Of a stretch of DNA of 64,000 nucleotides, positions 4,539-37,850 are shown piece after piece. Made by a program: the position numbers and the translations under genes. The notes under the pieces are model-generated. The model was not told the DNA's origin, did not search any database, and saw only the letters and a program-made list of their open reading frames with translations. The stretch is from contig CAWCYD010000003.1 of assembly GCA_963799775.1 (NCBI GenBank), forward strand, positions 1,600,001 through 1,664,000. The letters are read 5' to 3'. Source of the DNA: an uncultured archaeon. Its GTDB lineage: Archaea; Thermoproteota; Nitrososphaeria; Nitrososphaerales; Gagatemarchaeaceae. How positions within the stretch are numbered: the first letter of the stretch is position 1; every line of letters starts with the position of its first letter.

Positions 4539-5709
4539 TTGGATATCCTTCACAAACTATTTCCAAGCCTCTCAACGAGTTCGATTCAGTTGGGGCCTAG
4601 GAGAAGCGAGCTCGCCTTCATCATCACAGTCATGGTTGTTTTGGCATCATACGTGACGGCCTCCGAAGTACTCTCGACCGGCCCGGAATCATCTTCTGTG
4701 ATCACAACGATTAATGTCGGAGGCAGTCCAAGATATGCTGCCTTCGACCCCGCGAATGGCTACATATTCGTATGCAATGTTGGCTCCAACACGAGTCTGA
4801 AGGGAACCGTGGATGTGATCGACGGATCTTCGAATACCGTGGTGGCCAAGATCACGGTCGGAGTTTTCCCCAAATGGCTAGCTTTCGACTCGGCCAATGG
4901 AGATATCCTCGTCTCCAACTACGACTCTCATGCGATATCGGACGTAAGCGGAACATCGTGGGTCACCACTGCTACGCTCTCGCTCCCAAGCAAGGGGCCC
5001 CCGGTGCCTGAACCTGATGGAATCGCCTTCGACCCGACGAACGGGTATCTGTATGTCGTCGAGAACAACCTGGACTCTGTCATCGTGATTAACGGCGCGA
5101 ACGGCGCGGCGGTAGGTTCGCCGATACCAGTCGGCAAGGGCACCAGACGGAATAGCATTCAATCCATACACCGAGCAGATTGATGTCGCAAGTGACACAT
5201 CCCTCTCCGTGTTGAACCCGGCAAACGACTCGGTTGAGAGTTTCAAGACGCCGACCAGCTCGACCTCCCTCCCATTCACCGTCGCGGTCGACCCGTCGAC
5301 TGGGGACGTCTTTGTCGGCAATTTCGGCTCCAGTAGCGTCTACGTGTTCGGCCATTCTGGAGAGTTGGCGAACGTGACCCTAACCCAATCGCCCACCGCG
5401 ATCGCATTCGACTCGGCGACCGATGCAATGTTCGTGGCGGGCTCGAATGCCACTTTTGCGATAAATGCTCAGAACTTCGCCTTGATGGGCAAGCCGATTC
5501 CAGTCGGAAAGTCACTGCCGGATGTAAGCAATGGGGTCGCCTTCGACCTTGAGAATCACGAAATCTATGTGTCAAACGGGCTGGACGGGACCATATCAGT
5601 GATAGCCCCTGGGACGACGTCTCCTCCTCTGAGTTTTGCTCTTGTCGCCGTACCGATAATCTTCGTCGCCGTGCTGGCCGGCGTCGTGGTCTACCGACGC
5701 ATCGATTAG
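4539..5709 (+). CDS. YVTN/YncE-type beta-propeller surface protein (frameshift near 5140)
   Basis: repeated P.G.AFDP.NG.IYV / V.VIDG..N.V...I.VG motifs, N- and C-terminal TM. Confidence 0.8.
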
Positions 5710-8654: not shown

Positions 8655-8674
8655 GGTTCCATTGCGCCTCAGCG
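8655..8674. repeat. cassette-boundary repeat copy 1 (degenerate)
   Basis: GGTTCCATTGCGCCTCAGCG. Confidence 0.6.
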
Positions 8675-8780
8675 AGGACAATTCAAGCCGCGTCCCAGTA
8701 ATGTGGTCAGTGACGGATGCCTGTTTATCCACATTTGCAACATTTCCACGAAAGGTTTTCCGGCGACAGTGTTTTGGCAA

Positions 8781-10359
8781 TCAATGGTAAACATTGATGA
8801 TCTGGAGTTGGAACACATCTAGAAACGGCTGGCCGTTGACGCTCTCGTTCAGGACTATTGTGACACTCTCTTGCGGTGTGTTGGCAAATGTATTGATGCA
8901 CACTTGGAAGTAGTAGGGCTGGTCAGCCTGGATCACGAGCGAAGAATTGACAGGGAAGACCTGGAGCCAATTGGGGAGCGGGGACCTCCGTATCATTCTG
9001 GATTAAGCCGACCCCCGTGAAATTCACGGATAGGGTCGCATTTGAGATCATGCCAGGTGTGGGATCATAGACACCGGCTCCAATGGCGTAGTTGGTCTGA
9101 TCGGTCCCTATCTCTGCCGCCTGTGCGCCGGGAGAAAAGCCGACCGGCCCTGGTGAGCTCAATATGTGCGGGTTCCCGTCTGCATTGTTCAGCGCTATCA
9201 GGCCCTCTCCCATCAGGCCCTTGACGGAACCAGAAGCGTCGATGAAGAGAGAGTCGTTGAATGGGTTTGCGGGCGGAGGTGGGATATGGGTCTGCGGAGG
9301 AGGCGGTATTCCGACGCCGATCCCAAAGAGGAGCAGCGTAGAGGTCGCCCCCTGGGGGCCGACGTTCTCAAGGTGAGAAGGACTGAACTCCATCCAGGCG
9401 CCCTTCGGGACATCTGGAGAACTGAGATACACATCGGTCGTTGTGTTCGATGTCACAGTGACCTGGAACTTTTGTCCGCTAGCGAAGAAATCGTTCGGCC
9501 CGGCGTTCGACCCACATGAGCTCGCGTAGAGGTACACCCATGAGTAGGACGGCCCGCTGATCGTGACCTTGATTCCCTGCTGGATGGCGGTCGCATCACG
9601 CGCCATGAAGTAGACTGAGCCTATCGGCCTGACGGTGCGAAAGTCGAAGATGTACCCGCCCGGATGGGCGGAGAACTGTCCGCTGAAGCCTCCGCCTGGG
9701 AAACCACCTCCTGGGATCGAGACGCTCCTTGTCACGTTCTGGAGCGTCCCGGATAGAACCAGGGGTCGGAGGTCAGTAGAGTTGATCATCGCATCAGGCG
9801 TGAAGTAAACTGTGAGGTTCAGTTGCAATCCATTAAGGTCGGTACCTCGGAACGTGAATTGAATGGAAGCATTGTTCGAGAGTTCGAAGCCGAAGAGCTG
9901 CTCATGCAGGACTCCGCTCCATGAGGGTGGCTCGGGCTCGGAGACGTCCGTAGACATGTTGAATGTCTGAGGGACACCGACGGTGGACTCGGAAGAGGTG
10001 CACATTGGCGTGCTCCCGTTGGGGTAGGACGTCGCACAGTCTTCGTGGTACATCGTGGGAAGCCCCGAAGCGTTGAGAAGCGTGTCCTCGCTCGCAGCCA
10101 AGACCGAGCTAAAGGAAGAAGAGTTCTGAACATTGGCGCTGACGGTTGTCGAGTTCGCGCTAGAAGACGTAACGGTCGCAGGCGAGGACGTAGCGCTTTA
10201 TGGAGAGCCGGGGGTCTGCGTCGAAGCATTCGTCGTCGGCGAAAATCCTCTGGTGATCGATTGCGTGGGAGTGGAAGGGAGAGATAGAAACACAAGCAGC
10301 GAGGCTATCGCTACTGTGGCCAGAACGCCTCCCACAAGAGCTCCTTCGTTCCTCCTCAA
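8781..10359 (-). CDS. secreted protein, paralog of 23835-25415 (two apparent frameshifts)
   Basis: leader LRRNEGALVGG..; SEDTLLNASGLP..QADQPYYFQVC aligns with 23835-25415. Confidence 0.7.
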
Positions 10360-10713
10360 GGTCACCAATGGAGTTCCAAGGCATTGGTACTATTATCTCC
10401 TGTGAAGCTTCCCTCCCTCCTGAGCTAAAGGGCAGAGGTGGGTGAGGGCACCGAGATTTGCGTGGAAGAAGAGCCGCCGTCTGAGTGATAGCCAACCCTG
10501 CCGACTATCGTGAGCGCAACCAAGACGGTCACTGTCGCCGCCGCGCTCCTCATAGTCTTCAGATTTACGGAGACTCTCGTCAGCGATGGGGCGGTTCTGT
10601 GCACCACGCCGCCTTGGTGTGCTCTTTTGACAGGCGGACCGTGAGCTGAAGCCCTTCTCGACTTCACAAGAGTTTTTGACCATCCTCTGGCTATTCTTTT
10701 TCAGTCTGTCCCC

Positions 10714-11442
10714 ATGAAGAGGAAAGAAGCTAGCTTCATAGTGATACAAACAGGAATCCTAGTGGCTGTGCTTCTGCTCGTCTCCCTCCCCATACAGTCT
10801 CCATCGCCGCCGCCAAGTCCTCCAAATCCGATGGAAGAAACGTGCGCACAGACCCAGTCTTCAACCGCTCCACCTACCCTCCTAAGTCCTGTCAAAAACG
10901 AGACGACATTATCGAACGGCACGGTCGTCGACGAAACGTACTATCCCGTCCTGCTCCTTCGACCCGATACGACAGGAGCAATCTGCGTCAGGTATACCGA
11001 CCCGCTTTCGAAGGTGTCACAGAACCTTGTCGGAGCTACGTCGCTTTCCACCGGGATATTCGAGGTCAACAAGTCCTCGGGCGGAGGGGGAGAGACGATG
11101 GGGGTGGTTCCGCTCCCTCGAGGTGGCATCCTCAGCATCAGCGCGAGCCCTTCTCTGATCCAAGTCCAACCCGGCAGGAGCGAGGTCATCGCTTACACAT
11201 TGACATCGGGGAATTCGACCGGTGTGTATGAAGCAATGATGCCGCCGTGGGGCTACTGCTGGGGGCTACCGATATTTGTCGGGGGGAGCCCTTCCCAGCT
11301 CAATGCTACGGACTATTCTCAACTCGCTTTCATCACTAACCTGGCATGCTTTCCGCCTGGTGCAAGCAATCTCGTTGTGCTCTCAATCGCTTTCAGTAAC
11401 ATCGCGTTGGAATATGTGAGCCAGCCTGGCAGCAATGATTGA
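10714..11442 (+). CDS. secreted protein, MKRKEASF leader family
   Basis: TTLSNGTVVDE..PVLLLRP..ICVRY similar to 26742-27968. Confidence 0.7.
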   Translation: MKRKEASFIVIQTGILVAVLLLVSLPIQSPSPPPSPPNPMEETCAQTQSSTAPPTLLSPVKNETTLSNGTVVDETYYPVLLLRPDTTGAICVRYTDPLSKVSQNLVGATSLSTGIFEVNKSSGGGGETMGVVPLPRGGILSISASPSLIQVQPGRSEVIAYTLTSGNSTGVYEAMMPPWGYCWGLPIFVGGSPSQLNATDYSQLAFITNLACFPPGASNLVVLSIAFSNIALEYVSQPGSND

Positions 11443-11561
11443 TTCTTCGACTACCCATGGAAGTAGTGGCATCCTCGTAAGGTTCGAAATCATTCTCACG
11501 CCTTGAGCGAGACGTGTTTGATTCCCTGGGGTCAAGGTAGGCGAGGAGTTCACTGTGTTAG

Positions 11562-11573
11562 GGGTTCATTGCG
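11562..11573. repeat. cassette-boundary repeat copy 2 (partial)
   Basis: GGGTTCATTGCG. Confidence 0.55.
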
Positions 11574-11578
11574 GCAAA

Positions 11579-11589
11579 GTTTGGACAAA
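11579..11589 (+). promoter_or_regulatory. palindrome half-site upstream of TATA
   Basis: GTTTGGACAAA followed by TCTATTTAC, before TTG at 11635. Confidence 0.55.
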
Positions 11590-11634
11590 TCTATTTACCG
11601 CGCCGAGTGGAATGACCCTGCAGCGTCTTGGGCC

Positions 11635-12832
11635 TTGCCCAGTCGAAACACTTTCGGTTACGCCGCAATTCTCGCCGCTGCGATAGCGTGTGTTCTTGCC
11701 CTCGACCTTGTGGTCTTCCCCGTCTACCTGCCGCCGGTTGGCCCAAGCCAAACGTCGACGGGCGAGGCTAATGCCCAGCTCGGCTTACGCCTCACCCTCT
11801 CGCTGAACTCTACGAGGGTCGCATTCGGTGGACGCATCCAGATTGGCGTCGAGGAGCGGAACACCCTCTCGCGAGAGTGAACAACGTCACGGCCGCCGAT
11901 GACTGGCCGGCTGTGGGGCTTGACCTGGCCGCCGGGCCGAGGTCGATCTGCCCGGAGAGGGACGACATGGGGATAATCATCTACGAGGGTCCGCTAGACT
12001 TTGGAAACGTGTCCAGCGTGACCGGGGAGCAGATTGCGCCTGAAGGGGGTGCGTCATGCCCTTTTGTGCCGGGAATAATCTACTCGTACCAGTTTCAGGC
12101 CTCGAGCGACAACGCCACGGAGGCGTATGGCTGCAAGCCGGGCGCTTCTAACTCATCCGGGCCCGGCACGTCCTGTAGCTGCGTCCCTAGATCCTGTTCC
12201 CCTTTGGGCGTGAAGCCGGCGTTGACACAGAAGACCCTCGTCGTAAGAGGCTACTATGTCAATTTCACCACCCTCCACGCTTTTGCACCTGGTGAGTACT
12301 CGTGGTCGCGGGAGACGAATGGGGCGACGTCGCAATAGCTCACTTCACGGTCACGAGCCCGGGCTGCAAGACCTTGGACGATTCGCTGCCGTTTCCGGCA
12401 CTCCAGGAGAGAACCATCGGGGTCATCAACGAGCCAGGGGCCTGGGCATTCACTGCGAGTCTGGACAGCGCGGTGGGCTTTTTTGGAAGGAACGTGACAA
12501 TAAGCGCCAGCCTGGTGAACGTTGGGAACACATCTGAGAAGATCGAGCTCGTGGTTCCCATAATCGCACGTCTTCAGGTGCTCCGGAGTGATGGGAGCGC
12601 GGCTTGGACCTACGCCGCTCCATCACCCTTTCCATTACCCTTTTCGCCTAGTCTCTCCCTGGAGGATGTCACTCCCGACCAGCGGTTCAGCGATTCGGTT
12701 GGAATCCCCACCTCGCAGTTGCAACTCGGACAGAACTATACCGTGGTGGTTAGCCCGACATTCTTCGCCTCGCCGCCGTCAGCTCCCATCTCCTCCGGCT
12801 TGGGAATCACCTTCCCGCTGATGATCTGTTAA
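11635..12832 (+). CDS. secreted 'GDEWG' family protein with extra C-terminal domain (two apparent frameshifts)
   Basis: GLRLTLSLNST / NNVTAADDWP / VAGDEWG spread over three frames. Confidence 0.65.
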
Positions 12833-12851
12833 GGGTTCATTGCTCCTCCGC
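12833..12851. repeat. cassette-boundary repeat copy 3
   Basis: GGGTTCATTGCTCCTCCGC immediately after stop codon at 12832. Confidence 0.75.
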
Positions 12852-12902
12852 TTGCGCGTTTCATCCGCACGTTGGACTACAGTTATGGCTTGGGCATAAT
12901 CC

Positions 12903-13852
12903 TTAGGCGGACTTGGACACTGGCCCAACCACCCATACTACAAAGGAAGCTGAACAGTAGACCTCACCGTTCGAAGGCTCGACCATGAGTACGCCAAAGA
13001 TGTTCCCCACGATTGGATCACGAATCGTCGCGATCGGCGTGTTCGTGCTACCCGATATGACCACGATTGAAGACACAATTGTGGAGTTAGTCCGCTCGCT
13101 CGTCGATACGTAAAGATCTCCTGTGGCATTGTCGAACGCGAGGGCTGAGGGCGAGCCACCGAGTGCTATCGTCCCGTCGGCAGAATTGGTCGAACCTGAG
13201 ATGACAAAGATGCTGTCGTCATACATCGTGCTCAGGACATAGATGTTGCCGTTCGACGGATCCAGCACTGGTGTCTTGGGCGCGTACCCGACCGTAAGGT
13301 TGGCGATGACAGAGTTGGTTTGACCGGAAACCACAGAGACAAAACCGCGTGTCCAGCCGATACAACCATTGCAAGTAGGGAAGCCCGCACCATAGTCTGG
13401 CACGTAGATATCTCCGTTAAGAGGGTCGAATAATGGCGTAGCAGGATTTAGACCTACTTGCAAATCGGCAACTATCTCGTTTGTGGATCCTGATATCACT
13501 GATAGAGTGCCCCCGGGCGAAACACCGCGATTGGAACTGTTACCGAGATGAGGCACGTAGATGTCACCATTCGTCGGGTCGAGTGTAGGGGTGGCGTCTT
13601 CCTGGCCGAGCTGCATGGTTGAGACAAGTGCATTAGTCGTCCCAGATATTATTGAGATGGCATTGACGTCGGGCACATACAGGTCACCGTTGAGCGGATC
13701 AAACAACGGAGTCAAGGGCTCGATGCCAACTTCAATCCTGGCGCCGTCAACTCGTAGAGACCTGTCGCTGCGACCACGATGAGCAGAGTGCAAACGAACG
13801 CGAGAGATGCTGATTGTATGGCATGCCTGTGACGCTTCGCTAGCCAATCCAA
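12903..13852 (-). CDS. YVTN beta-propeller surface protein (frameshift near 13740)
   Basis: P.FDP.NGDIYVP repeats; signal peptide MDWLAKRHRHAIQSASLAFVCTLLIVV in another frame. Confidence 0.75.
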
Positions 13853-13928
13853 GACCCTCTACACGTTCGAGCGTAATGGTCTGCGGGTCTATTTCAAGTC
13901 GCCGAATCAATCCTTCGGGTCAGCGTCC

Positions 13929-13982
13929 GCTAGCCGGCTGAAAATGCGAGCGTTCGCCGAACAAAGGGTTCATTGCGCCTCC
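13929..13982. repeat. cassette-boundary repeat copy 4 with left arm
   Basis: GCTAG..GAAAATGCGAGCGTTCGCCGAACAAA-GGGTTCATTGCGCCTCC (core 13966-13982). Confidence 0.85.
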
Positions 13983-13996
13983 CGATTCTATTCGCC

Positions 13997-14665
13997 TTAG
14001 GGGGTGAAGGCGCCCAGGAACGCGAGACATCCGTAGTCTGTCCCATTGACGGTCTCCGTGGTGTATCCTATGCAACCATACACGCTCTGTCCCACTACCG
14101 GGGCTTTCACTCCGCCGAATTTCTGGGAGAAGATGGCCGTGAAGTTCGTGATGGTCCCAGTTGCTGTAATACTGGAGATGTAATACGAGGGAGAGCTCGT
14201 GCAGCTCGTGGCGGCACCACCACCGAAATTGTTCCCCGAACCGTAGGTCAGATCGACGCAATCCAGGCCCTTGTCGAGAGTAGTGCCGATGTCCGATGGC
14301 TGGTCTATGTTCGTGATTAGAAAGGTGCAGGTGTCGTTGCTGATACTGCACCCGGTTAGGTCAACACCCTTGGTCGGGCCGATGAACTCGTTGGAGAATT
14401 CGCCCGCGCCCGTTGGCTGCGAGGTCGTCGTTGTCACAATCGTGCTCGTCAGGTAGCTCGTCTGGAACAGGGTGGTTGTGGAGGTGGACGTCTCGGTGCG
14501 GACTGTGGAGGTGCCTGCAAAATATCCAACGCCAAGGCTCACCACTAGGAGGACTGTCACTGAAAGTGCAAGTAACTCGCGCTTCAACTCGAATCGAGAG
14601 AGGCCCGCCTTCCTATTGAAGGCTAGGGAGGAATCCTCTCGCGCGTGGGGGCAAATTGCCGCCAT
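13997..14665 (-). CDS. secreted Thr-rich, Cys-containing protein
   Basis: TM LLALSVTVLLVVSLGVGYF, Thr linker; true start probably near 14620. Confidence 0.7.
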   Translation of the reverse strand: MAAICPHAREDSSLAFNRKAGLSRFELKRELLALSVTVLLVVSLGVGYFAGTSTVRTETSTSTTTLFQTSYLTSTIVTTTTSQPTGAGEFSNEFIGPTKGVDLTGCSISNDTCTFLITNIDQPSDIGTTLDKGLDCVDLTYGSGNNFGGGAATSCTSSPSYYISSITATGTITNFTAIFSQKFGGVKAPVVGQSVYGCIGYTTETVNGTDYGCLAFLGAFTP

Positions 14666-14671
14666 GCATAT

Positions 14672-14693
14672 GGGTTCATTGCGCCTCCGTCGG
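14672..14693. repeat. cassette-boundary repeat copy 5
   Basis: GGGTTCATTGCGCCTCCGTCGG, 8 nt from stop at 14702. Confidence 0.85.
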
Positions 14694-14701
14694 GGATTGC
14701 G

Positions 14702-15781
14702 CTAGGGGCAGGTCGATGACAAGTAAGCAATCGTGACGTTCGTCCTCCCTGAAGGAAGATATAGGCTCGCGCACGTCGTCGAGAGCGGGGAAAGGCCCGC
14801 CGTCAACGTGTAGCTCTGGCCTGAGTATTTGACGAGGATTGAATATCCCCCGATGTTGTAGGTTCCCAATGAGTACCACTCTCGGCCTCCTGATGTAGTG
14901 AAGTATTGGGACTGTGGCTGACCGCATGGCTGTCCATTGACCGAGTCGGGGTGGGTGGTCGCATTCACCATCGCTCCCACCACAGGCGTCTGGTTCGAGT
15001 CCCAGATGACTCGGAGGTCGAAGCCGTCGGCCTGGCCTGTGATGACGCACTGCTCTGATGTCGAGGTCGTCTGCAGTGGAGACGTGGAGGAGGAGGATTC
15101 GGGAGTCGTACCGGGACCCAGTGTGAAGTTGGCTTCCAGCACTGAAGCCGAGCCCGTGCCGTCACCCGCGGCCAAGCTATAGTTCCCCGCTGTCACTGCG
15201 CCCATCCCCACCGTGACTACGCCTCCACTTTCGCCCGGCGCGGCAGTGTTCCAATCGGTTTCGCACGAGTCTCCAGTCGGAGACGGCGTCCCCGGCGCTC
15301 CCAGGGCGATGCATGGAGCCGTCTGGAGGACTAGGCTTCCAGTTGAGTTGGTAATCGTGAATGCCACCGTGTCGCTGTCGTAGAGTGATGCCGCCAAGCA
15401 GACGTCATCCCCGACCTTTGCGTTGGTAGAGACGTACAGCATCCCCTGCGAGTTCGAAGCCACCAGAGCGCAATCGCAGCCTGGCCATCCGGTCTCAGTG
15501 ACGGTGTAGGACGAGTTGCCTGTGTGGCCGGGGGAAGGAGCGCACTCTGACGAACTGACAGATTGAGACGAATTGGACCCAGTGAGGAACGTGCTTGTCG
15601 ACTGTGAGGTGGACGGAGAGGAGCTGATGGTGCTCGCCGGCCCGCCCGGATTAGTGTACGAGAAGTAGGAGTAAGTTGCCCCGGCGACCACGATCGCTGT
15701 AATCACCAGGAGGACCATGGCTGTCCGCTGGATTGCTACTCTTCGAGGCAACGCGCAATCGCTCTTTTCTTGAGGCGTCAT
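14702..15781 (-). CDS. secreted two-domain Ser/Thr-rich protein
   Basis: N-terminal TM, paired Cys; likely start TTG at 15751. Confidence 0.7.
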   Translation of the reverse strand: MTPQEKSDCALPRRVAIQRTAMVLLVITAIVVAGATYSYFSYTNPGGPASTISSSPSTSQSTSTFLTGSNSSQSVSSSECAPSPGHTGNSSYTVTETGWPGCDCALVASNSQGMLYVSTNAKVGDDVCLAASLYDSDTVAFTITNSTGSLVLQTAPCIALGAPGTPSPTGDSCETDWNTAAPGESGGVVTVGMGAVTAGNYSLAAGDGTGSASVLEANFTLGPGTTPESSSSTSPLQTTSTSEQCVITGQADGFDLRVIWDSNQTPVVGAMVNATTHPDSVNGQPCGQPQSQYFTTSGGREWYSLGTYNIGGYSILVKYSGQSYTLTAGLSPLSTTCASLYLPSGRTNVTIAYLSSTCP

Positions 15782-15789
15782 TCGTGATA

Positions 15790-15875
15790 TACTTTTGTCC
15801 GAACGTTACAGCTCACGCTAGCTTATCGAAAATGCGGGCATTCGCCGAGCATAGGGTTCATCGCGCCTCCGCCGG
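15790..15875. repeat. promoter half-site + left arm + repeat copy 6
   Basis: TTTGTCCGAAC 15794-15804; core GGGTTCATCGCGCCTCCGCCGG 15854-15875; block aligns with 17398-17483. Confidence 0.85.
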
Positions 15876-15879
15876 AGAT

Positions 15880-16341
15880 TCACGACGGTCTCGCAGCGAT
15901 GCCGTCTGCACAAATCTGTGAGTGAGGCGCAGGGTCGCTCGAACCCGAATGCACGCCCGACTCAGGGCTTCCCCGTCTTTGGTAGAGGAAGATGGCTCCC
16001 AGAGCAAGAGCGAAGCCAACAAGCCAGACGAGGATAATCCCAGGTCCCACAGGGACGTGGAGGAGCCCGAAGAGCTCGGGCGAGCAACGCCCACCGATCC
16101 CGGTAACGAGACTCGTGCTCGTGTAGTTGGCCGGGTAGGTACCCGAAACAGTCCCTCTGCCGACGGTGCTCGACCAAACGCAGACGTACCCGAACGAGGT
16201 CGTGACGGTGGTCGTCCCCGTGATGGTCCCGGCCACGGGAAAGAAATCGACGACCCCTCTCGGGGCGAGGCTCATCACGAAGAGCACGTAGAGCACGGCG
16301 AAGACGGCCACGACGATGCTTAGGCTGGGAAGGAGCCTCAA
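15880..16341 (-). CDS. small two-TM membrane protein
   Basis: N- and C-terminal hydrophobic helices around a Thr-rich loop. Confidence 0.65.
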   Translation of the reverse strand: MRLLPSLSIVVAVFAVLYVLFVMSLAPRGVVDFFPVAGTITGTTTVTTSFGYVCVWSSTVGRGTVSGTYPANYTSTSLVTGIGGRCSPELFGLLHVPVGPGIILVWLVGFALALGAIFLYQRRGSPESGVHSGSSDPAPHSQICADGIAARPS

Positions 16342-16422
16342 GTGTCAGCTTCTATGTTCTAGAGAACCTCCAGGGCTTTATCCCATTCGTCGCAGTCACA
16401 GTGGTAATGGTGGGCTTTCCTC

Positions 16423-17361
16423 CTATGAGAGGACGGTAATCTCGAGCAGGACATTCATGTCGCACGTGAAGAAGAACTGCAGAGTCACACTTCCGTTGAA
16501 GAGGGAGACTGGTCCCTGACCGAAGTCGGGAGGCCAGCTCTGGCCATTCCAAGCTCCAAGGTTGGTGTAATTTGCAACCTGTGTCGTTTGCCCGTTTGAG
16601 ACGTGCAGAAAGACCTGAGGCCAAAGGTAGACGACCTGAGGAGTGTTGGAGTAGGCGACCGCCCTGACCGCGTACCCTCCCACGCTTACCGACGTGCCAT
16701 TCCATTGCCAAGAGTTGAACTGGGCAGTCACGTTGAGGACTGAGACAGCCTTGGTTGTGGAACTCGAGTTGGAAGGCGCTTGGCCCGAATAGCAGGTTGA
16801 GGTTTGGACCGTGCTGCTTGGGGGAACAATCTGAACCTGCACCGTATAGGAGAACTGCGTTCCGTTCACGAGGGTTCCACTGATCGTAAGAGGATATTCG
16901 AGGCTGCTGTCAATTGAATAGCCGATCAAAGTACGCGTTTCCTGGATGCTTTGGCCAAGCAGGAGGGGATTCGACGAGTTCACGTTGAACACGAAGGATT
17001 ACGGGACGGACGGTCCTCCGGGAAGCCTTGGTAGGGTCGCGTTCAGAGAGGTGATTGGAGTCTCGCCCGTATTCTTCAAGGATATGCTGATTACCGGCCC
17101 TCCCGGATTGGGGGGCGGGATCGGACCCGTTACCGAAACGACCTGGACGGGGCCATTGGATGTAGTCACCGTCTGGGTATTGTTCTCAGAGACATTCGTG
17201 ACTGTTCCAGAAGTGGTCGTCTCACAGCAGAGAATTGTGGTCTGAGAAGTCGCGGAAGGTGATGACGTCACGGCAAGGTAACCCGCTGCAACAGCGGCCA
17301 CGATTATGACGGCCACGAAAGCGACTGCGGCCCCCGCAACTGCTTTCCGGTTCCGAGCCAT
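16423..17361 (-). CDS. secreted protein interrupted by in-frame TAA at 16999-17001
   Basis: MARNRKAVAG leader; the two ORF halves are in the same frame. Confidence 0.6.
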
Positions 17362-17397
17362 GCAAAGTCGATGATGAACACGCCAACGCGCCATTAG

Positions 17398-17483
17398 TAC
17401 TTTTGTCCGAACGCTCCAGCTCTAGCTGGATTCGAGAAAATGCGGGCTGGACCATGCATAAGGGTTCAGTGCGCCTTCGCCGG
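17398..17483. repeat. promoter half-site + left arm + repeat copy 7
   Basis: TTTGTCCGAAC 17402-17412; core GGGTTCAGTGCGCCTTCGCCGG 17462-17483. Confidence 0.85.
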
Positions 17484-17561
17484 TGAAAGTTCCAGAAGGC
17501 GTATCTATCCCGGGAGCAGGCAAAGCGGTGATGCTGATGGTAGGATCTCGACTTTCATTGG

Positions 17562-18071
17562 ATGGCTAGGGTCTCAACTTTGGAACTTACCCTTCAGGAT
17601 TACTTGGTCTGGCTGAAGAGACTCTCCGTATTGGGGATGTTCGGTGGTTACATCATCGGAAGACTGCCTCCCCCGCCCCTCACGTGCAACAATCCTCAGG
17701 TAATCAACGGACAACCTTTCTGCATGTATAGTGGGCCCGTCATCCCGCCCATAACCGCTGTCGTAGGAATCCCGATGCTCTTGCTCTCGGCTTTCGGGCT
17801 TGCCTCCTTCTTCCTGATCAGGCAGATCGCCCCCGGCGAAACGGGAGGTGCGATGAGCAGTATCTGGCTCGTGCTTGCCGTGGCTATCATGCTGCCGCTT
17901 ACGGTATTCACTTACGAGGAACAGGCGACACTCGCGTGGTTCGGGACACCGCTCACACCGCTGACTGTGGGAATCGGAGTACCAATCATTGCTTGCTCGG
18001 TCTTCAGGTTCGTCAGGCCCTACAAGGTCAAGTGGACACCCGAAGCTAACGAGAGTGAACTATTCGCCTAG
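17562..18071 (+). CDS. hypothetical multi-TM membrane protein
   Basis: about four hydrophobic segments, Cys-bounded loop. Confidence 0.6.
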   Translation: MARVSTLELTLQDYLVWLKRLSVLGMFGGYIIGRLPPPPLTCNNPQVINGQPFCMYSGPVIPPITAVVGIPMLLLSAFGLASFFLIRQIAPGETGGAMSSIWLVLAVAIMLPLTVFTYEEQATLAWFGTPLTPLTVGIGVPIIACSVFRFVRPYKVKWTPEANESELFA

Positions 18072-18113
18072 GTCTCTCTCGTCGCTTGCTTGTGGCAGCC
18101 TTCGTCGTGAAAT

Positions 18114-18135
18114 GGGTTCATTGCGCCTCCGCCGG
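18114..18135. repeat. cassette-boundary repeat copy 8 (consensus)
   Basis: GGGTTCATTGCGCCTCCGCCGG. Confidence 0.9.
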
Positions 18136-18171
18136 GCATTTCATTCACTCGTTGGGCAAACGGTTCTCCCA

Positions 18172-18402
18172 TCAATCGAGCAAGTCTAGGAATTGCTCAA
18201 CGGTAAATCCAGCCTCACTGATTATCGCTCTTAGGGTTCCTCGGGGAATCTCATCATAGTTCGGAATGGCAATCCTGCGATGGGGCGGCTCTTCGCGCCT
18301 GAGAACTATGTGGCTTCCCTTTTGATGGTCGAACCTGTAGCCAATCTTCGATAATGCTTTGACGACTTCCTTTGCCGAAAGAATCGGAAGCTTCCTAGGC
18401 AT
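18172..18402 (-). CDS. hicA: HicA-family toxin
   Basis: LPILSAKEVVKAL..GY..HQKGSH..IP...EIPRGTL. Confidence 0.9.
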   Translation of the reverse strand: MPRKLPILSAKEVVKALSKIGYRFDHQKGSHIVLRREEPPHRRIAIPNYDEIPRGTLRAIISEAGFTVEQFLDLLD

Positions 18403-18634
18403 TCATTTCAACTGTCACGATTTCCTCGTTTATCGGAGGCGGAACAGGCTCGTTATGCTTCTGCAAGCTTTCGATGTAAGCTTGGATTGCCTCTTTGATG
18501 TTCTTCAGTGCCTCGGCCCTCGTCGACCCGGAAGAGATGCAGCCTGGCAGCTCGGGGACTCTCGCAGTGAACTTGCCATCCTCGTCCTGTTCGATCAGGG
18601 TCCGATACCGCAGTTTGAGTTTCCGCGAAGCCAT
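18395..18634 (-). CDS. hicB: HicB-family antitoxin (short)
   Basis: DEDGKFTARVPELPGCISSGSTRAEALKNIKEAI. Confidence 0.9.
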   Translation of the reverse strand: MASRKLKLRYRTLIEQDEDGKFTARVPELPGCISSGSTRAEALKNIKEAIQAYIESLQKHNEPVPPPINEEIVTVEMNA

Positions 18635-18726
18635 GCGGAGGAACGGAGCTCTGTCGCTCGATATAACTATCTCGGCGGTCGGTGTGGAGTGACCAAGACG
18701 AGGGAAGCTTAGCCGCCGTGCTAAGA

Positions 18727-18748
18727 AGGTTCATTGCGCCTCCGCCGG
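18727..18748. repeat. cassette-boundary repeat copy 9
   Basis: AGGTTCATTGCGCCTCCGCCGG. Confidence 0.88.
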
Positions 18749-18786: not shown

Positions 18787-19752
18787 TCATCCGCCGACCA
18801 AGCCGACGCCCGGCGGTCGCTGCACAACCGGTCCGTCGGTCCTTTCAAGATCGTCGAAGAGGTTGAGCAGCATCCTTCCCATGGGTGTCACCTCGTAGAG
18901 CCTGACCGTCCCGTAGGCCGACTGCTCCCTGACGAAGCCGTACTTGTTGAGCGTCTGCATGTGCCTGTCCACGGTCTTCCAGTCGACCCCCAGTTCCTCT
19001 GCCAATTGGAGCCTGTCCTTGGGGGTGCTCAGCGTGTTGAGGAGCCTGATCCTGGTGGCCCCGCCCTTCATCTTCATGAAGAGCTCGAAGACGTCCGACC
19101 CGAACCCCATCTCGCTGTATCGCGCCCTCACCCGGCCCCTCCAGACCCAGGCCCCGCCCACGAGGACCCACGTCACGGGGGCCACGAAGAGCGAGGCGGA
19201 TTGCACCTCCCTCAAGAGCGATGCGCCTTCGGTGGTTGAGATGGCGGCGAGAGCAGCCGAGTTCTGGGAACTGGTGGTCGCGCCGCCGAAAGTGTAGCCG
19301 GCCCCGCCGGTAGAGGTCGAGACGGCTCCTGCTGCGGAGGAAGCTGTGACCGTCGTTACCGGCCCCGCCGGGGCGTTTACAACAGCGGTGGTCGTGGATG
19401 TGGAGGTAATCGTTGACGTCGCAGTTGTCGTGATACTCGAGGTCACGACGGTCGTGGTTGACTCGGTAGCTGGGCTGGACACTGTGCTCGATAGAGCAGA
19501 GGAACCCCCGGCCGACTGCCCGGCGGCGGTCGAGGTCGCTGTCGAGACCGAAGAGCTTGCTTTGGTCGATGAAGCCTGCGCCGCGGCTGAGGATGAGATG
19601 CTTGAGGACGATGTGGGCGCTTCGGAATTCGAGGCCGCGGAATTCAGTGCCGGGACGGCGGATTGAGAAGTGACAAGACCCCACCCTGCCAGTAATGAGG
19701 TCCCTGCCGCAACGAATAGCAAAGCGGCGAAGGCGGCCGCAAACTTGTTCAA
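18787..19752 (-). CDS. membrane-tethered ArsR-like wHTH transcriptional regulator
   Basis: signal/TM, ~150 aa Ser/Thr linker, second TM, then KGGATRIRLL..QLAEELGVDWKTVDRHMQTL..YEVTPMG. Confidence 0.8.
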   Translation of the reverse strand: MNKFAAAFAALLFVAAGTSLLAGWGLVTSQSAVPALNSAASNSEAPTSSSSISSSAAAQASSTKASSSVSTATSTAAGQSAGGSSALSSTVSSPATESTTTVVTSSITTTATSTITSTSTTTAVVNAPAGPVTTVTASSAAGAVSTSTGGAGYTFGGATTSSQNSAALAAISTTEGASLLREVQSASLFVAPVTWVLVGGAWVWRGRVRARYSEMGFGSDVFELFMKMKGGATRIRLLNTLSTPKDRLQLAEELGVDWKTVDRHMQTLNKYGFVREQSAYGTVRLYEVTPMGRMLLNLFDDLERTDGPVVQRPPGVGLVGG

Positions 19753-19796
19753 TCTAACAGCAGATAGGAAAAAATCGCCTGGTCACCATAAATAGT

Positions 19797-19818
19797 TTTG
19801 TCCGAACGTTCGGACAAA
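19797..19818. promoter_or_regulatory. perfect 22-bp palindrome between divergent promoters
   Basis: TTTGTCCGAAC-GTTCGGACAAA. Confidence 0.8.
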
Positions 19819-19851
19819 CCCTCATCTCGACACAGGTCGCTATTGCCGGTC

Positions 19852-21172
19852 ATGCGTTCGAGAAGGGCACTTGCCGTCATCGTATTGCTGCTTGTCGTCG
19901 TCGGGGGAGGAGTAGTAGTGGGTCTGACCGGGGCGCCGAATGCCTTGCGGGCAGGGTCGATGTTGAACGCACCCTCCACACAGAACATCGAGGCGGGCCC
20001 GGCCCTCGCGAGCATCGGGACGAGCTTCGGCTTTGGGGCGGTGGCGAGCTCGACTTCGGCCGCAGCCAACGTCCCTATCTCTGCCGGAGCAGTCACCACT
20101 TTGACTACGACCGAGATCGCGTCTTCGACCGTATCCGCGCCCGCGAGCGGCAGCACCATTGCTATTCAGGGCAACTCGCAGGCGTTTTCGACAGGAGCGC
20201 CTCTTACGGCCGCCTCGGCTGAAGCCAACTCGAGCCGCGACATCGAGTTCTTCACCAACGTCACGCTCCAGGCCCCTTCGGCATCGGCTGCCTTCACAAA
20301 GGCGACTGCGATCGCCTACTCGCTCGGGGGATACGTCTCTGACTCCACCGAGAGCAACACCACCGCCCTCGTGGTCATCCGCGTTCCGGCGGCGAGCGAC
20401 CAGGAAGCCCTGGCGCAGGTCGAGGGTCTCGGCACGCGGGTCACCTTGAGCTCCTCGAGCAACGACGTGACCGTGCAGTACACCGACCTGAACGCGACCC
20501 TCCAGTCTCTGCAGGCCGAGCAGAGCTCCCTGCTTACGATCCTCGGCCAGTCGACCAACATCAACTCGACCCTGAACGTAGAGTCGAGGGTCCAGTCCGT
20601 CGACCAGCAGATCAATGCCGTGGAGAGCGAGATCCTGCAGACGAGGACGCTCGTCTCCTACGCCACGATTTCTACGTTCATCGAGGAGAAGGCGCCCGCA
20701 CAGCCGCTCACGATAAAGGTCACGGCGACACCGCGAACCGGTGACGCCCCGCTCAGCGTGACGTTCAACGCTGTGACGAAGGGCGGGGTCCAGCCGTACA
20801 TCGTGAACTACAACTTTGGCGACGGGCACCTCCTACGAGGGGCAGGCGCTCATACACACGTTCCAGCAGGCCGGGCGCTACAACGTGACGGTCACCGCAA
20901 CGGACGCCTCGGCCAACGTCACGGAGGCATGGACGGTGGTCAACGTCTCCCCCGCTCCGGCAGCCTCGGGCTTCGGCGGCTTCCCTAACTTCATAGGAGG
21001 GCTCTTCCTGCAGGTGGTCGAGGGGATCGCGGAGGTCGCGGTGGTCGTGCTCCCGGTCGCGGGCGCCCTCCTGTTGGTGCTCTTCCCCCTCCGGCACAGG
21101 TTGGGGATGTCCTCAGGACGGCCCAGTCACGATGAGGAAAGGAAGGCCGGGGAACCCGACAAGACTTCGTGA
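19852..21172 (+). CDS. DUF4349-family membrane protein with PKD domain (frameshift near 20830)
   Basis: GGYVS..IRVPA..DVTVQYTDLNA coiled coil, SYATI; APLSVTF..NFGDG..HTF..GRYNVTVTATD; C-terminal TM. Confidence 0.75.
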
Positions 21173-22010: not shown

Positions 22011-22200
22011 CGCTGTTCGACGAAGATAAATGGCGAGGTACGATATAAGCCCCTCAAAGATTCCGGAGTCGTAACATGTCTTGTGCGAAGGGACTCGTCA
22101 TGGTTAGTGTCGCCACAGCGGTTCGTTGCTCCCCAGGGATTCATCTGACGAAATGAAGCGCTTCATCCGCGGTTAGAGATGCGAGACCACAGATCTTCTG

Positions 22201-23834: not shown

Positions 23835-25415
23835 TCAATGATTGACGTTGTTTATCCAGATCTGGAACTCATCCATGAAGGTCTGACCGTTGACACTCTC
23901 GTTCAGCGCGACGTTGAACGTCCCCTGGGGAGTGGACGTATTGATGCTCACACATATCTGGAAGTAGTAGGGCTGGTCCGCCTGGATGACGAATGACGAG
24001 TTGACTGGCGTGACTTGGAGCCAGCTCGGGAGACGGACCTCTGTGCCATTCTCGACCAGGGCGACGCCTGTTATCTTCACTGACAGCGTTGCGTTGGAGA
24101 ACGAGCCTGGGGTCGGGTCGTAGAGGCCTCCCCCGACGGCATAATTGGTCTGGTTGGTCTCGGTACTCGGAGTCACTCCCTGGCTGAAAATTACCCCCAA
24201 AGTGTCCGAGGCGAACCCCACCGGACCCGGGGACCTCAGGATGTGCATGCCACCATCCTCAGAGTTCAGAGCGATAAGGCCCTCTCCCATCAGGCCATTG
24301 GTGGAACCAGAAGCGTCGATGAAGAGCGAGGAGTTGAACTGGTACCCCGCATTCGTTGAGACGTCCCCGGCGAGGAGGAGCGTGGCATTGGCGCCTCGGG
24401 GACCGACGTTCTGCAGGTAAGACGGGCTGAACTCCGCCCACACACCGTTGGGCACGTCCGGTGAGCTCAGGTACACGCCGGTCGTCTCGTCGGAGGTGAC
24501 GGTGATTGGGAACTTCTGCTCGCTGATGCCATACTCGTGAGGCCCTGAACTCGAACCGCATACGTAGGAGTAGAGGTTCATCTCTACGTCCGTTGGAGAC
24601 CCTACGGTCACCTTGATGCCCCGCTGAAGCGCCGAAGCATCTCGCACCACGAAGTACACCGCGCCGATGTCGCGGACGGTCCGAAAGTCGAAGATGTAAC
24701 CGCCCGGATGGGCTGAGATCTGTCCGCTGAAACCTCCTCCTGAGAACCCGTTACCTCCAGGGATCGAGACACTCTTGGTCGCTATTTGGAGCGCCCCGGA
24801 CAATACCATGGGTCTAAGGTCGGTCGAGTTGATCTCATCGGGAGTGAAGTAGACCGTGAGGTTCAATTGGTCACTCCGAAGATCGGGACCGCGGAAAGTG
24901 AATTGAAGGGAAGCGTTGTTCGTTAGCTGGAAGCCGAAGAAGTGCTCGTCGAGAATTCCCGTCCAATAGCGCGAATCGTTGTGAAGTATGGATACGTCCT
25001 TCGACATGTTGAAGGTCTGAGGGACACCGACGACGGTAGACTCTGCTGAGCTGCAGCTGGTGCTAGTGCCGTTTGGGTATGACGTTGAGCAAACCTGGTG
25101 ATACATGATCGGGAGTCCCGTGACGTTGAGAAGAGTATCAGCATCCTCGCTCACTGCTGGAGTGGAGGTAGATGTGGAACTCGAGGCGCTGGTGTTGGAG
25201 GTGGTTGTCGAGGGTGTGGAATTCGCGCTCGAGGTCGGAGGCGCAGATGACGAGGTGGTGCTTGATGTAGAGCCACTCGATGCCGATGATTGGGTCGATG
25301 ATGTCGACCCGCCGCCAGAATTGGCCTGAAATTCCAGGGGCAGAGATACGAGAAGCAACACCGCCGCGATTGTTGCAACCTGTGCGGCCACGAAGGACGC
25401 TTCCTTCTTCCTCAT
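23835..25415 (-). CDS. secreted protein, MRKKEASF leader family
   Basis: intact paralog of 8781-10359. Confidence 0.75.
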   Translation of the reverse strand: MRKKEASFVAAQVATIAAVLLLVSLPLEFQANSGGGSTSSTQSSASSGSTSSTTSSSAPPTSSANSTPSTTTSNTSASSSTSTSTPAVSEDADTLLNVTGLPIMYHQVCSTSYPNGTSTSCSSAESTVVGVPQTFNMSKDVSILHNDSRYWTGILDEHFFGFQLTNNASLQFTFRGPDLRSDQLNLTVYFTPDEINSTDLRPMVLSGALQIATKSVSIPGGNGFSGGGFSGQISAHPGGYIFDFRTVRDIGAVYFVVRDASALQRGIKVTVGSPTDVEMNLYSYVCGSSSGPHEYGISEQKFPITVTSDETTGVYLSSPDVPNGVWAEFSPSYLQNVGPRGANATLLLAGDVSTNAGYQFNSSLFIDASGSTNGLMGEGLIALNSEDGGMHILRSPGPVGFASDTLGVIFSQGVTPSTETNQTNYAVGGGLYDPTPGSFSNATLSVKITGVALVENGTEVRLPSWLQVTPVNSSFVIQADQPYYFQICVSINTSTPQGTFNVALNESVNGQTFMDEFQIWINNVNH

Positions 25416-37553: not shown

Positions 37554-37850
37554 GACGCGAGCCGGTGAGCGGGCCACGGGGACCTCCTGGGGAAGTTCCT
37601 CCCTCGCTGCAGGATGCACGACGCCGAGAGACGTAGCTGGAGACGGCTGGCAACAGAACAGAAACGAGACCCGTCCCGTTTAACGCGATGATGGAGAAAT
37701 CCTGAGGTCGGCGGAGACGGGATGAAACGGCTGACCCGTGCAGAGCAAGGCCGAACATGGTCGACGACGCGCCTGCACCAATGACCAAGGTGGGCCGCAT
37801 TAGCTGAATCCCGCCTAAAACAAAAGGAGGACTACGGCCGGGGACGTGTC
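37554..37850 (+). ncRNA. rnpB: RNase P RNA
   Basis: GGGGAAGTTCCTCC pairs with ACAAAAGGAGGAC (P4); GCAACAGAA and TGAAAC conserved regions; AAAGTATTAAT promoter at 37521; ends approximate. Confidence 0.88.

Follow-up and report, generated by a model that had tools for sequence, protein, structure and literature searches.

How do unrelated genes come to stand in a row, each set off from the next by the same short direct repeat? A 64,000-nt stretch of DNA from an uncultured archaeon of the family Gagatemarchaeaceae (hereafter, the window) raises this question: the original prediction described nine co-oriented copies of a repeat, here called R, delimiting an integron-like array of gene cassettes with no integrase. 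We searched the plus strand of the window with the 22-mer GGGTTCATTGCGCCTCCGCCGG, allowing up to 3 mismatches, and found six matches (0–3 mismatches) at 12833, 14672, 15854, 17462, 18114, and 18727, compared with 0.00 expected from 100 shuffles. The 13-nt centre of R lies at 8656 (2 mismatches), 11563 (1 mismatch), and 13967 (no mismatches), within the more degenerate copies at 8655, 11562, and 13966. Eight of the nine copies match the 17-nt core GGAGGCGCAATGAACCC (minus strand, up to 3 mismatches allowed); the copy at 11562 retains only half of the repeat, and a possible tenth at 22120 is doubtful because it offers 2 mismatches in 13 positions and little else. As predicted, the copies share one orientation (8 forward and 0 reverse in the minus-strand reading of positions 5001–26000), are positioned between the long open reading frames (ORFs) of the window, and lie near stop codons, those at 13997, 14702, and 15880 being 7–13 nt from an R copy. 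The array and its surroundings comprise the following features:

22120–22142, minus strand: possible R copy 10, doubtful
18787–20988: conserved flank, with an HTH protein (18787–19752, minus strand) and a DUF4349 protein (19798–20988, plus strand)
18727–18748, minus strand: R copy 1, one mismatch to the 22-mer; the 23S-trailer sense is the minus strand
18172–18634, minus strand: single cassette with hicB (18395–18634) and hicA (18172–18402), both exceeding the Pfam cut-off
18114–18157, minus strand: R copy 2, an exact 22-mer (18114–18135), then about 16 nt resembling the 23S end (18136–18157)
17562–18071, plus strand: cassette for a 169-aa membrane protein, gene on the opposite strand
17462–17483, minus strand: R copy 3, two mismatches
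15880–17394, minus strand: cassette with three ORFs (131, 189, and 153 aa) containing hydrophobic anchors and Ser/Thr-rich stretches
15854–15875, minus strand: R copy 4, one mismatch
14702–15781, minus strand: cassette ORF of 359 aa, N-terminal anchor, Ser/Thr-rich, without a Pfam family
14672–14693, minus strand: R copy 5, one mismatch
13997–14665, minus strand: cassette ORF of 222 aa, anchor and Thr-rich linker, no Pfam family over the cut-off
13966–13987, minus strand: R copy 6, diverged in the left 5 nt but with the 17-nt core preserved
12903–13910, minus strand: cassette ORF of 335 aa in which NGDIYVPD units recur (propeller-like by eye); the Kelch_6 match stays under the cut-off
12833–12885, minus strand: R copy 7, three mismatches, with a further 24 nt or so similar to the 3′ end of 23S (alignment −24 to +30)
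8923–12832: section of the array that is older and decayed, with ORFs at 8923–10101 (minus strand), 10714–11442 (plus strand), and 11503–12832 (plus strand, three consecutive)
11562–11583, minus strand: R copy 8, degenerate, with the right half CGCAATGAACCC alone retained
8655–8677, minus strand: R copy 9, degenerate, carrying an insertion of 1 nt

This array is a secondary one; the primary array of the genome lies behind its rRNA operon. The interval 18114–18727 holds hicB and hicA and nothing else, exactly the pair expected there, and this cassette is bounded by R in five genomes (the window genome and, as homologues, G007, G021, G009, and G014). In G018, DNA 82% identical to the 17562–18071 cassette lies within the portion of the primary array nearest 23S. 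The description of the cassette genes as surface-protein genes finds no support in Pfam, which gives most ORFs no family; their translations make it plausible by eye, showing hydrophobic anchors at the N-terminus, linkers rich in Ser/Thr, and N-x-S/T sequons. The HTH/DUF4349 pair is syntenic in four genomes (G018, G011, G007, and G009); conservation thus picks up again some 60 nt past R copy 1.

R and the 23S rRNA trailer

R reproduces the DNA directly downstream of the single 23S rRNA gene, the 3′ trailer. The first R begins 5 nt beyond the end of the gene, which lies at C3:1867442; among non-self alignments, 19 of 56 extend 16–76 nt into the 3′ end of 23S itself. In the window, R copy 2 aligns from −16 to +46 relative to the 23S end, and the region of R copy 4 aligns to trailer positions +7 to +75, with further trailer sequence repeated downstream of that copy at 15790–15853 (a hairpin plus TTTT; AGCTAGCG..; ACGTTCGGACAAA). 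A related trailer motif stands behind 23S in G032, a member of another family.

Archaeal pre-rRNA processing stems contain bulge-helix-bulge motifs that are cut by the splicing endonuclease. R forms the 3′ strand of the stem at which 23S is processed, its partner being the 5′ flank of the gene; the duplex of flank and trailer reaches −69.7 kcal/mol compared with −37.9 ± 5.2 kcal/mol for 200 shuffles. This duplex can be drawn by eye as a bulge-helix-bulge (GGGUUC/GAACCC, bulge AAU, GCGC/GCGC, bulge AAG), with the minimum-energy fold placing the loops slightly differently. The copy behind 23S corresponds to the 3′ strand of an archaeal processing stem, but about 70 further copies per genome lie between protein genes and have no 5′ partner.

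Arrays and cassettes across the genus

The 2.47-Mb genome carries about 71 R copies, all intergenic and in co-oriented clusters. The primary array, which starts with the copy behind 23S, contains 48 R copies in 54 kb at a median spacing of 808 nt, all in one orientation (48 forward and 0 reverse in C3:1855001–1935000); the corresponding counts are 39 and 0 in G007 and 62 and 0 in G021. Cassettes are 0.3–2.2 kb long, with sites less than 4 kb apart and up to about 60 cassettes in succession. R is present in 20 of 22 genomes of the genus and in the one sister-genus genome; it was found neither in the one genome of a third genus nor in any of 16 genomes of other families. An array lies directly behind 23S in all eight genus genomes with this region assembled. 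Against the reading favored below, the decay of R with distance from 23S that would be expected was absent in the window genome, G000 (rho 0.01); G007 (0.37) and G021 (0.39) showed it weakly.

Each cassette opens with a 5′ region, continues with one to three ORFs on either strand, and closes with R at its 3′ end, in some cases preceded by 16–76 nt similar to the end of 23S. By a rough ORF call, 90 of the longest cassette ORFs are co-oriented with R and 45 are opposite (n = 135). Family matches among 133 such ORFs include PIN (10), PIN_2 (4), PIN_3 (4), HicA (2), ParE (2), Fic (2), GNAT (2), methyltransferases (3), and glyoxalase (2). The cargo, with its PIN, HicA, ParE, and Fic toxins, its acetyltransferases and methyltransferases, and plausibly its surface proteins, resembles that of integron cassettes. 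TATA-like promoters can be seen by eye on some cassettes.

Comparison between relatives showed that interspecies differences in cassette content and order coincide with R, as had been anticipated for gene gain and loss. Synteny through the rRNA operon stops 21–41 nt after the 17-nt core begins. Nineteen alignments of at least 200 nt, all same-strand, join cassettes at non-collinear positions of different arrays, and homology runs from R to R over whole cassettes: cassette 32 of G007 matches cassette 47 of G021, and the hicBA cassette of the window matches cassette 23 of G007 and cassette 31 of G021.

A selfish intergenic repeat of the REP or MITE kind, unrelated to gene mobility, might be suspected from some 71 copies in 2.47 Mb, every one intergenic. 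Such dispersal, which the original prediction had named as the observation that would count against it, is contradicted by the strictly co-oriented clusters (48/0, 39/0, 62/0, and 8/0 in the window) and by non-collinear and R-to-R cassette homology bounded by R. R is also non-palindromic. We therefore rejected this explanation as having almost no credibility.

R might otherwise act at the RNA level, as a portable 3′-end, processing, or termination module selected as an expression signal, in which half a bulge-helix-bulge pairs with the abundant 23S 5′ spacer and is followed by a hairpin and U-run. R is indeed the 3′ half of the processing stem, it lies 0–40 nt past the stops of many co-oriented ORFs, and a small hairpin and TTTT follow some copies. 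However, its orientation stays constant while about one-third of the longest ORFs (45 of 135, rough call) run the other way, and neither the permutation of whole cassettes between genomes nor the 23S 3′-end fragments that they carry would be explained, making this role of R improbable as the source of the arrays.

Recombinases and known capture systems

Integrons are the textbook gene-capture device and have so far been defined by the IntI family and attC sites. A canonical integron or CALIN with attC sites too divergent for recognition by eye would account for co-oriented sites less than 4 kb apart, mainly single-ORF cassettes, and cargo of toxin-antitoxin pairs and acetyltransferases. However, a six-frame search of G000 (81.7% complete) with the IntI model TIGR02249 gave at best 33.9 bits, and a scan of four tyrosine recombinases at most 55.5 bits (for a XerA-like protein), where the cut-off is 265. 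When R elements were folded on each strand (eight folds, 91–121 nt), z-scores ranged from −1.79 to +1.25, hence no hairpin, in agreement with the expected lack of attC structure, and the site is not palindromic but a homologue of the 23S trailer. Ghaly et al. 2022 (PMC9668308) report integrons from archaeal MAGs that have IntI and attC; even so, we consider a canonical integron very improbable.

Compared with sedentary chromosomal integrons and CALINs, the archaeal examples of Ghaly et al. included, the likeness lies in architecture and cargo: long co-oriented arrays of mostly single-gene cassettes (0.3–2.2 kb) with a 3′ site and no integrase, one privileged chromosomal site at the array head, secondary arrays with no recombinase nearby, and a content in which toxin-antitoxin pairs, acetyltransferases, methyltransferases, and genes of unknown function abound. 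The parts differ, with a 23S trailer copy in place of an attC hairpin with R″/R′ boxes, IntI not found, an rRNA gene rather than an intI-attI platform at the array head, and own TATA-like promoters, identified by eye, on some cassettes. Integrative elements at the 3′ ends of stable RNA genes (Krupovic et al. 2019, PMC6563490) share an att site that overlaps the RNA-gene 3′ end and is restored by the incoming copy, and at tRNA and tmRNA genes repeated use of a site builds arrays parted by direct repeats. R has this type of position, both 5 nt after 23S and in the alignments reaching into its 3′ end. The word rRNA does not occur in that account of archaeal integrated elements (PMC6563490). Measured against the elements described there, our system differs in its target, the 23S 3′ end and processing stem, and in its units, which are 0.3–2.2 kb long, lack their own integrase, and stand up to about 60 in tandem.

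Also similar are modules bounded by copies of a host-essential site, small and recombinase-less, that a host enzyme moves in trans. Xer-dependent modules of this kind include IMEX elements at dif and the pdif modules of Acinetobacter plasmids. In contrast to these, R appears to lack the inverted recombinase-binding arms of a 28-bp dif-like site (folds showed no self-complementarity, and none was evident by eye), all R copies are direct instead of alternating, and they lie behind the rRNA operon, not at the terminus. In the literature that we searched, we found no report of this system, which appears to be integron-like but built from different parts.

Consistent with the prediction of an array without integrase, none of the five PF00589 matches in G000 lies within the primary or window array. 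Tyrosine recombinases do adjoin R copies elsewhere in the genome, where the prediction had suggested looking, and across genomes such genes stand directly upstream of co-oriented R at seven loci. The XerA-like protein scores 151 bits against a cut-off of 220. The best candidate is a tyrosine recombinase with a zinc ribbon, encoded together with a J-domain protein just ahead of R mini-arrays on plasmid-like elements, whose possible role is suggested by its surroundings: at all five loci of its clade (at least 68% identity; two in G000 and one each in G011, G017, and G020), a co-oriented R lies 0.5–1.9 kb behind the integrase and J-domain genes, and more R copies come after it. The two G000 elements have common left and right modules, the right one beginning exactly at R, with R-bounded cassettes in between. 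Against this candidate, the clade was found in only four genomes in all (3 of 22 other genus genomes), and neither a J-domain gene nor R was found near relatives at 56–57% identity (0 of 6 loci, 1.5-kb flanks) or at 62% identity (0 of 2 metagenome loci). In other MAGs, any tyrosine recombinase lies near R at only 2 of 80 loci. By folds and by eye, R has no inverted-repeat core of the type usually bound by tyrosine recombinases.

It is conceivable that no dedicated recombinase exists: R would have arisen when the 3′ end of 23S was duplicated along with its trailer, and homologous recombination alone, for example after uptake of relatives' DNA, would reorder the cassettes. R and its flanks supply 25–130 bp of homology, which would also permit such shuffling and counts against a dedicated system. 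No recombinase is conserved beside the primary arrays (the gene next upstream encodes a housekeeping oxidoreductase), and the candidate is patchy. A secondary array of G018 opens with a 23S fragment (63 nt matched, at least 163 nt implied), which points to segmental duplication. However, the roughly 25 nt conserved at most copies are very short for efficient homologous recombination, which also leaves unexplained both the presence of R at a single end and in a single orientation on unrelated genes and the recombinases upstream of R at the seven loci. We regard homologous recombination alone as unlikely.

A proposed cassette system of acid-soil archaea

The reading we favor, and judge somewhat probable, is that R marks cassette boundaries and that a trans-acting tyrosine recombinase recombines R with R, the 23S trailer being attI-like. 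Capture or shuffling by a recombinase in trans, as originally proposed, is supported by synteny that stops at R, variable cassette content, and co-oriented clusters; from these patterns, we infer recombination between R copies. In reads that gave only short contigs, no recombination product was seen, neither a cassette circle nor an empty site within one population. Cassettes without an integrase stack head to tail, strictly co-oriented, behind 23S, with secondary arrays elsewhere. Their insertion, excision, and reshuffling would proceed by conservative site-specific recombination between R sites, with the tyrosine recombinase provided in trans, the genuine 23S trailer in the role of attI, and the cassette-borne R in that of attC.

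More tentatively, and at somewhat less than even confidence, the system could be an independently evolved archaeal counterpart of integrons that captures genes at the 23S processing stem by a non-IntI tyrosine recombinase, perhaps aided by the J-domain protein, with a mobile version on plasmid-like elements. Because the array is co-oriented behind the strongest promoter of the cell and every divider amounts to half a substrate for the splicing endonuclease, expression of the cassettes or formation of their 3′ ends may also be coupled to rRNA transcription and processing.

If this is true, cassette arrays would be a convergent solution, with the same architecture and similar cargo made from other parts, and the rRNA 3′ end would join the known attachment sites. 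The R site and the candidate recombinase offer a testable basis for genetic tools in Nitrososphaerota. The hosts belong to a non-ammonia-oxidising genus of that group, abundant and uncultured archaea of acid soils, in which the arrays would amount to 45–126 kb of flexible genome per cell (about 2–4% of the genome), invisible to annotation pipelines and to tools of the IntegronFinder type.

The repeat in the genome and behind the 23S rRNA gene

On the + strand of the window, a 22-mer of the direct repeat, R, matched at 12833, 14672, 15854, 17462, 18114 and 18727 (6 matches at ≤3 mismatches; shuffle expectation 0.00, n = 100), and three further copies (8655, 11562, 13966) have diverged more yet are still recognizable. 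A 17-nt core, GGAGGCGCAATGAACCC in the minus-strand reading, recovered eight of the nine copies of the original prediction at ≤3 mismatches, all co-oriented as claimed; the copy at 11562 keeps only its right half, and a possible tenth copy at 22120 is doubtful. The copies lie between long ORFs, and the interval 18114–18727 indeed holds hicB and hicA and nothing else. The array adjoins a conserved HTH–DUF4349 gene pair, and conservation returns roughly 60 nt beyond its first R copy. A minus-strand GGAGG..ATG was rejected as a leader peptide or Shine-Dalgarno signal, since the short ORFs that it would start show no conservation. Elsewhere, the window holds a full-length archaeal RNase P RNA (37557–37847, +; 160.5 bits), which marks this DNA as archaeal.

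A search of the genome with the repeat, proposed as a check against REP/MITE-like dispersal, gave 75 core matches in the assembly under study (G000; 2.47 Mb, 3 contigs, 81.7% complete), of which four without any flanking conservation were set aside, leaving 71 R copies. These are clustered, not scattered: 48 lie in C3:1867454–1921258 on contig 3 (48 forward, 0 reverse; median spacing 808 nt), and the rest form small clusters, the window array among them. The large array, which we call the primary array, begins right behind the genome's only rRNA operon, its first R lying 5 nt past the end of 23S:

C3:1861747–1863244, + strand, 16S gene of the G000 rRNA operon
C3:1863478–1867442, + strand, 23S gene of the G000 rRNA operon

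The 5' flank of 23S is complementary to R, with a flank duplex of −69.7 kcal/mol versus −37.9 ± 5.2 for 200 shuffles. Because the two flanks pair into so strong a duplex, R makes up the 3' side of the processing stem of 23S. A bulge-helix-bulge can be drawn by eye in this duplex (GGGUUC/GAACCC, bulge AAU, GCGC/GCGC, bulge AAG); a canonical one is not proven, because the computed fold places the loops slightly differently. An RNA-level role for R is a possible explanation in part. With the 23S end and trailer as the query, BLAST returned 57 alignments in G000, one being the query's own locus, and 19 of the 56 non-self alignments include 16–76 nt of the 23S 3' end. G032, a genome of another family, has a related trailer motif behind its 23S gene; the R sequence is thus an old functional rRNA flank that has been multiplied in this lineage. 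A tRNA-fragment att site was rejected, the arrays and integrase surroundings being free of tRNA. The 23S gene heading the primary array also contains a group I intron (77.5 bits; excerpt L011:5517–5772 = G000 C3:1865517–1865772), and an intein with a LAGLIDADG domain lies in the 2-oxoacid:ferredoxin oxidoreductase beta subunit gene just upstream of the operon (L010:17454–19526 = G000 C3:1857454–1859526).

Arrays and their cassettes among relatives

A 20-nt R pattern (≤2 mismatches) occurs in 20 of 22 same-genus genomes and in the one sister-genus genome, and was found in neither the one genome of a third genus of the family nor any of 16 genomes from other families of the order; a reversed-pattern control gave 0 in every genome. 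R directly follows 23S and heads a co-oriented array in all eight genomes in which the 23S 3' end and downstream DNA are assembled (G000, G007, G014, G021, G009, G011, G017 and G018), with array lengths from ~10 kb to ~126 kb (longest in G014). The 23S end and its trailer showed no repetition within 20 kb downstream in three complete genomes from other families. Exact R copies are present in public MAGs under the names Nitrososphaerales, Thaumarchaeota and 'Candidatus Gagatemarchaeum stordalenia'. They are also found on short contigs binned to Acidimicrobiales and Acidobacteria MAGs (L050, L079), which are likely mis-binned archaeal contigs; cross-domain cassettes are possible.

We ran BLASTN between the window array and those of G000, G007 and G021, dropping matches below 200 nt. 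The rRNA operon and upstream genes are syntenic, homology stops 21–41 nt after the 17-nt core begins, and beyond that point the arrays have no common order. Nineteen alignments, all same-strand, pair non-collinear cassettes (R-bounded units) from different arrays; G000 cassettes 8, 16, 25, 28, 40 and 44, for instance, match G007 cassettes 6, 19, 18, 38, 22 and 20, respectively. Where whole cassettes are homologous, similarity begins just past one R, includes the next R and ends there, as seen for G007 cassette 32 with G021 cassette 47 and for the window hicBA cassette with G007 cassette 23 and G021 cassette 31; the hicBA cassette is bounded by R in five genomes. Differences in cassette content and order between relatives, whose comparison had been proposed as a further check, therefore coincide with R, and any crossover must fall within or just past the R core. 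The 23S-like stretch to the left of R moves with the upstream cassette, and a cassette therefore comprises a 5' region, one or more ORFs, an optional 23S-like piece and R. Integrons likewise carry their site at the cassette 3' end, where R lies in these archaeal cassettes. Together, these comparisons show R as the boundary of putatively mobile units; homologous recombination alone is a possible explanation of their exchange in part.

G018 carries a secondary array, with different cassettes, at the place syntenic with the window array. Window cassette 17562–18071 has 82% identity to DNA near the head of the G018 primary array. A 23S 3' fragment precedes the first R of the G018 secondary array (G018:C3:362896–363084; 63 nt matched, at least 163 nt implied), a hint that secondary arrays may originate as copies of the leading end of the primary one. 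R decay shows a mixed polarity along the arrays (rho 0.01 in G000, 0.37 in G007 and 0.39 in G021, from an ungapped comparison with indel noise). Sequencing reads (three runs of one study, short contigs only) gave five 'joints' at repeats with sides of just 21–39 nt, and loose read-contig ends at R in the same data come from other copies or strains.

Cassette cargo

Among 20 window ORFs scanned, only HicA, HicB, an HTH domain and DUF4349 exceeded Pfam cut-offs. The claim that the intervals mostly hold surface-protein genes finds no support in Pfam and is plausible by eye: the other window proteins have hydrophobic N-termini as anchors, Ser/Thr-rich linkers and numerous N-x-S/T sequons. One window cassette (11503–12832, +) is filled by three consecutive ORFs (125, 153 and 176 aa), perhaps one reverse-oriented gene broken by frameshifts. 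About 1.3 kb of DNA is 68% identical between a 526-aa gene outside the array (23835–25415, −) and a 392-aa ORF in the oldest cassette (8923–10101, −), so array cargo has paralogues in the flanking genome.

We scanned 133 cassette ORFs (window, 7; G000, 43; G007, 32; G021, 51): 131 cassettes each contributed their longest ORF, and hicB and hicA replaced a spurious antisense ORF in the window hicBA cassette. The commonest families are PIN (10), PIN_2 (4), PIN_3 (4) and methyltransferases (3), followed by HicA, ParE, Fic, GNAT, glyoxalase and AHSA1 with two each, and 81 families were matched in total. Of 135 cassettes, 90 have their longest ORF in the same direction as R and 45 in the opposite one, a rough call that includes at least one known antisense artefact. 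Larger R-bounded blocks carry defence-type genes. One such block, 9.3 kb long and distal in the primary array at its far end, encodes an AIPR protein and a Schlafen-like helicase of the DUF2075 type (L013:14081–18186 = G000 C3:1914081–1918186), which look like defence genes. A 3.3-kb block, 80% identical between the two genomes, occupies R-bounded position 1 in G007 (L120:12342–16744) and position 5 in G021. Its products are a 658-aa P-loop ATPase, an RNase H-fold exonuclease and two unknown proteins, making it a larger passenger without an integrase.

Candidate recombinases and a proposed mode of movement

Profile searches of G000 (81.7% complete) found no integron integrase, and neither a reverse transcriptase nor a serine recombinase was found in this genome. 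PF00589 identified five tyrosine recombinases, none within arrays, in agreement with the predicted lack of an integrase in the window array; the gene before the rRNA operon encodes a housekeeping oxidoreductase. Single-stranded DNA folds of eight R elements (91–121 nt, some on both strands) had z-scores of −1.79 to +1.25, and R is not an attC-like hairpin, in line with the original prediction.

Two of the tyrosine recombinases, P0001 and P0002, are paralogues with 70% identity; both end in a zinc ribbon at the C-terminus, and each is followed by a J-domain protein gene and then by co-oriented R copies. The two G000 integrase elements have a common left module, made up of the integrase and J-domain genes, and a common right module, which has R as its exact left border and includes 21-nt iterons. 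The space between the two modules is taken up by R-bounded cassettes in one element and by a STAND NTPase gene in the other. The right module carries two sets of 21-nt-spaced iterons (L142:8732–8851 = G000 C3:126732–126851), which suggest a candidate plasmid- or virus-like replication origin. No flanking att repeats were found around either element.

The order integrase, J-domain gene, R recurs in G011, G017 and G020, and thus at five of five loci of the clade, with more R copies downstream. Counting against the zinc-ribbon recombinase clade as the candidate is its patchiness: just 3 of the 22 other genomes of the genus have it. Neither the J-domain gene nor R accompanies relatives at 56–57% identity (0 of 6 loci, 1.5-kb flanks). 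A metagenome search for integrase–R loci returned four loci, none with R; two are 62%-identity relatives cut by contig ends, and the J-domain gene and R are absent from both. Other MAGs provided 80 loci surrounding R, and a tyrosine recombinase occurs in just two of them, both times directly upstream of and co-oriented with R. Two other integrase families fit poorly as partners of R: a 430-aa type occurs in 16 of the 22 genomes of the genus and, beyond it, in two families without R, and a 413-aa type in 8 of 22.

Ghaly et al. 2022 (PMC9668308) describe archaeal integrons defined by IntI and attC, and the main text mentions neither Thaumarchaeota, Nitrososphaer- nor rRNA. The Gagatemarchaeaceae genome paper (PMC10640624) does not mention integron, cassette, 23S, repeat, mobile or integrase, and a survey of Thaumarchaeota integrated elements (PMC6563490) does not mention rRNA; full-text literature searches found nothing relevant and no report of such an R-cassette system. 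From the architecture of the arrays, the cassette-borne 23S fragments and the adjacency of recombinase and R, we infer that site-specific recombination would move the units and that they would enter at the genuine 23S trailer.
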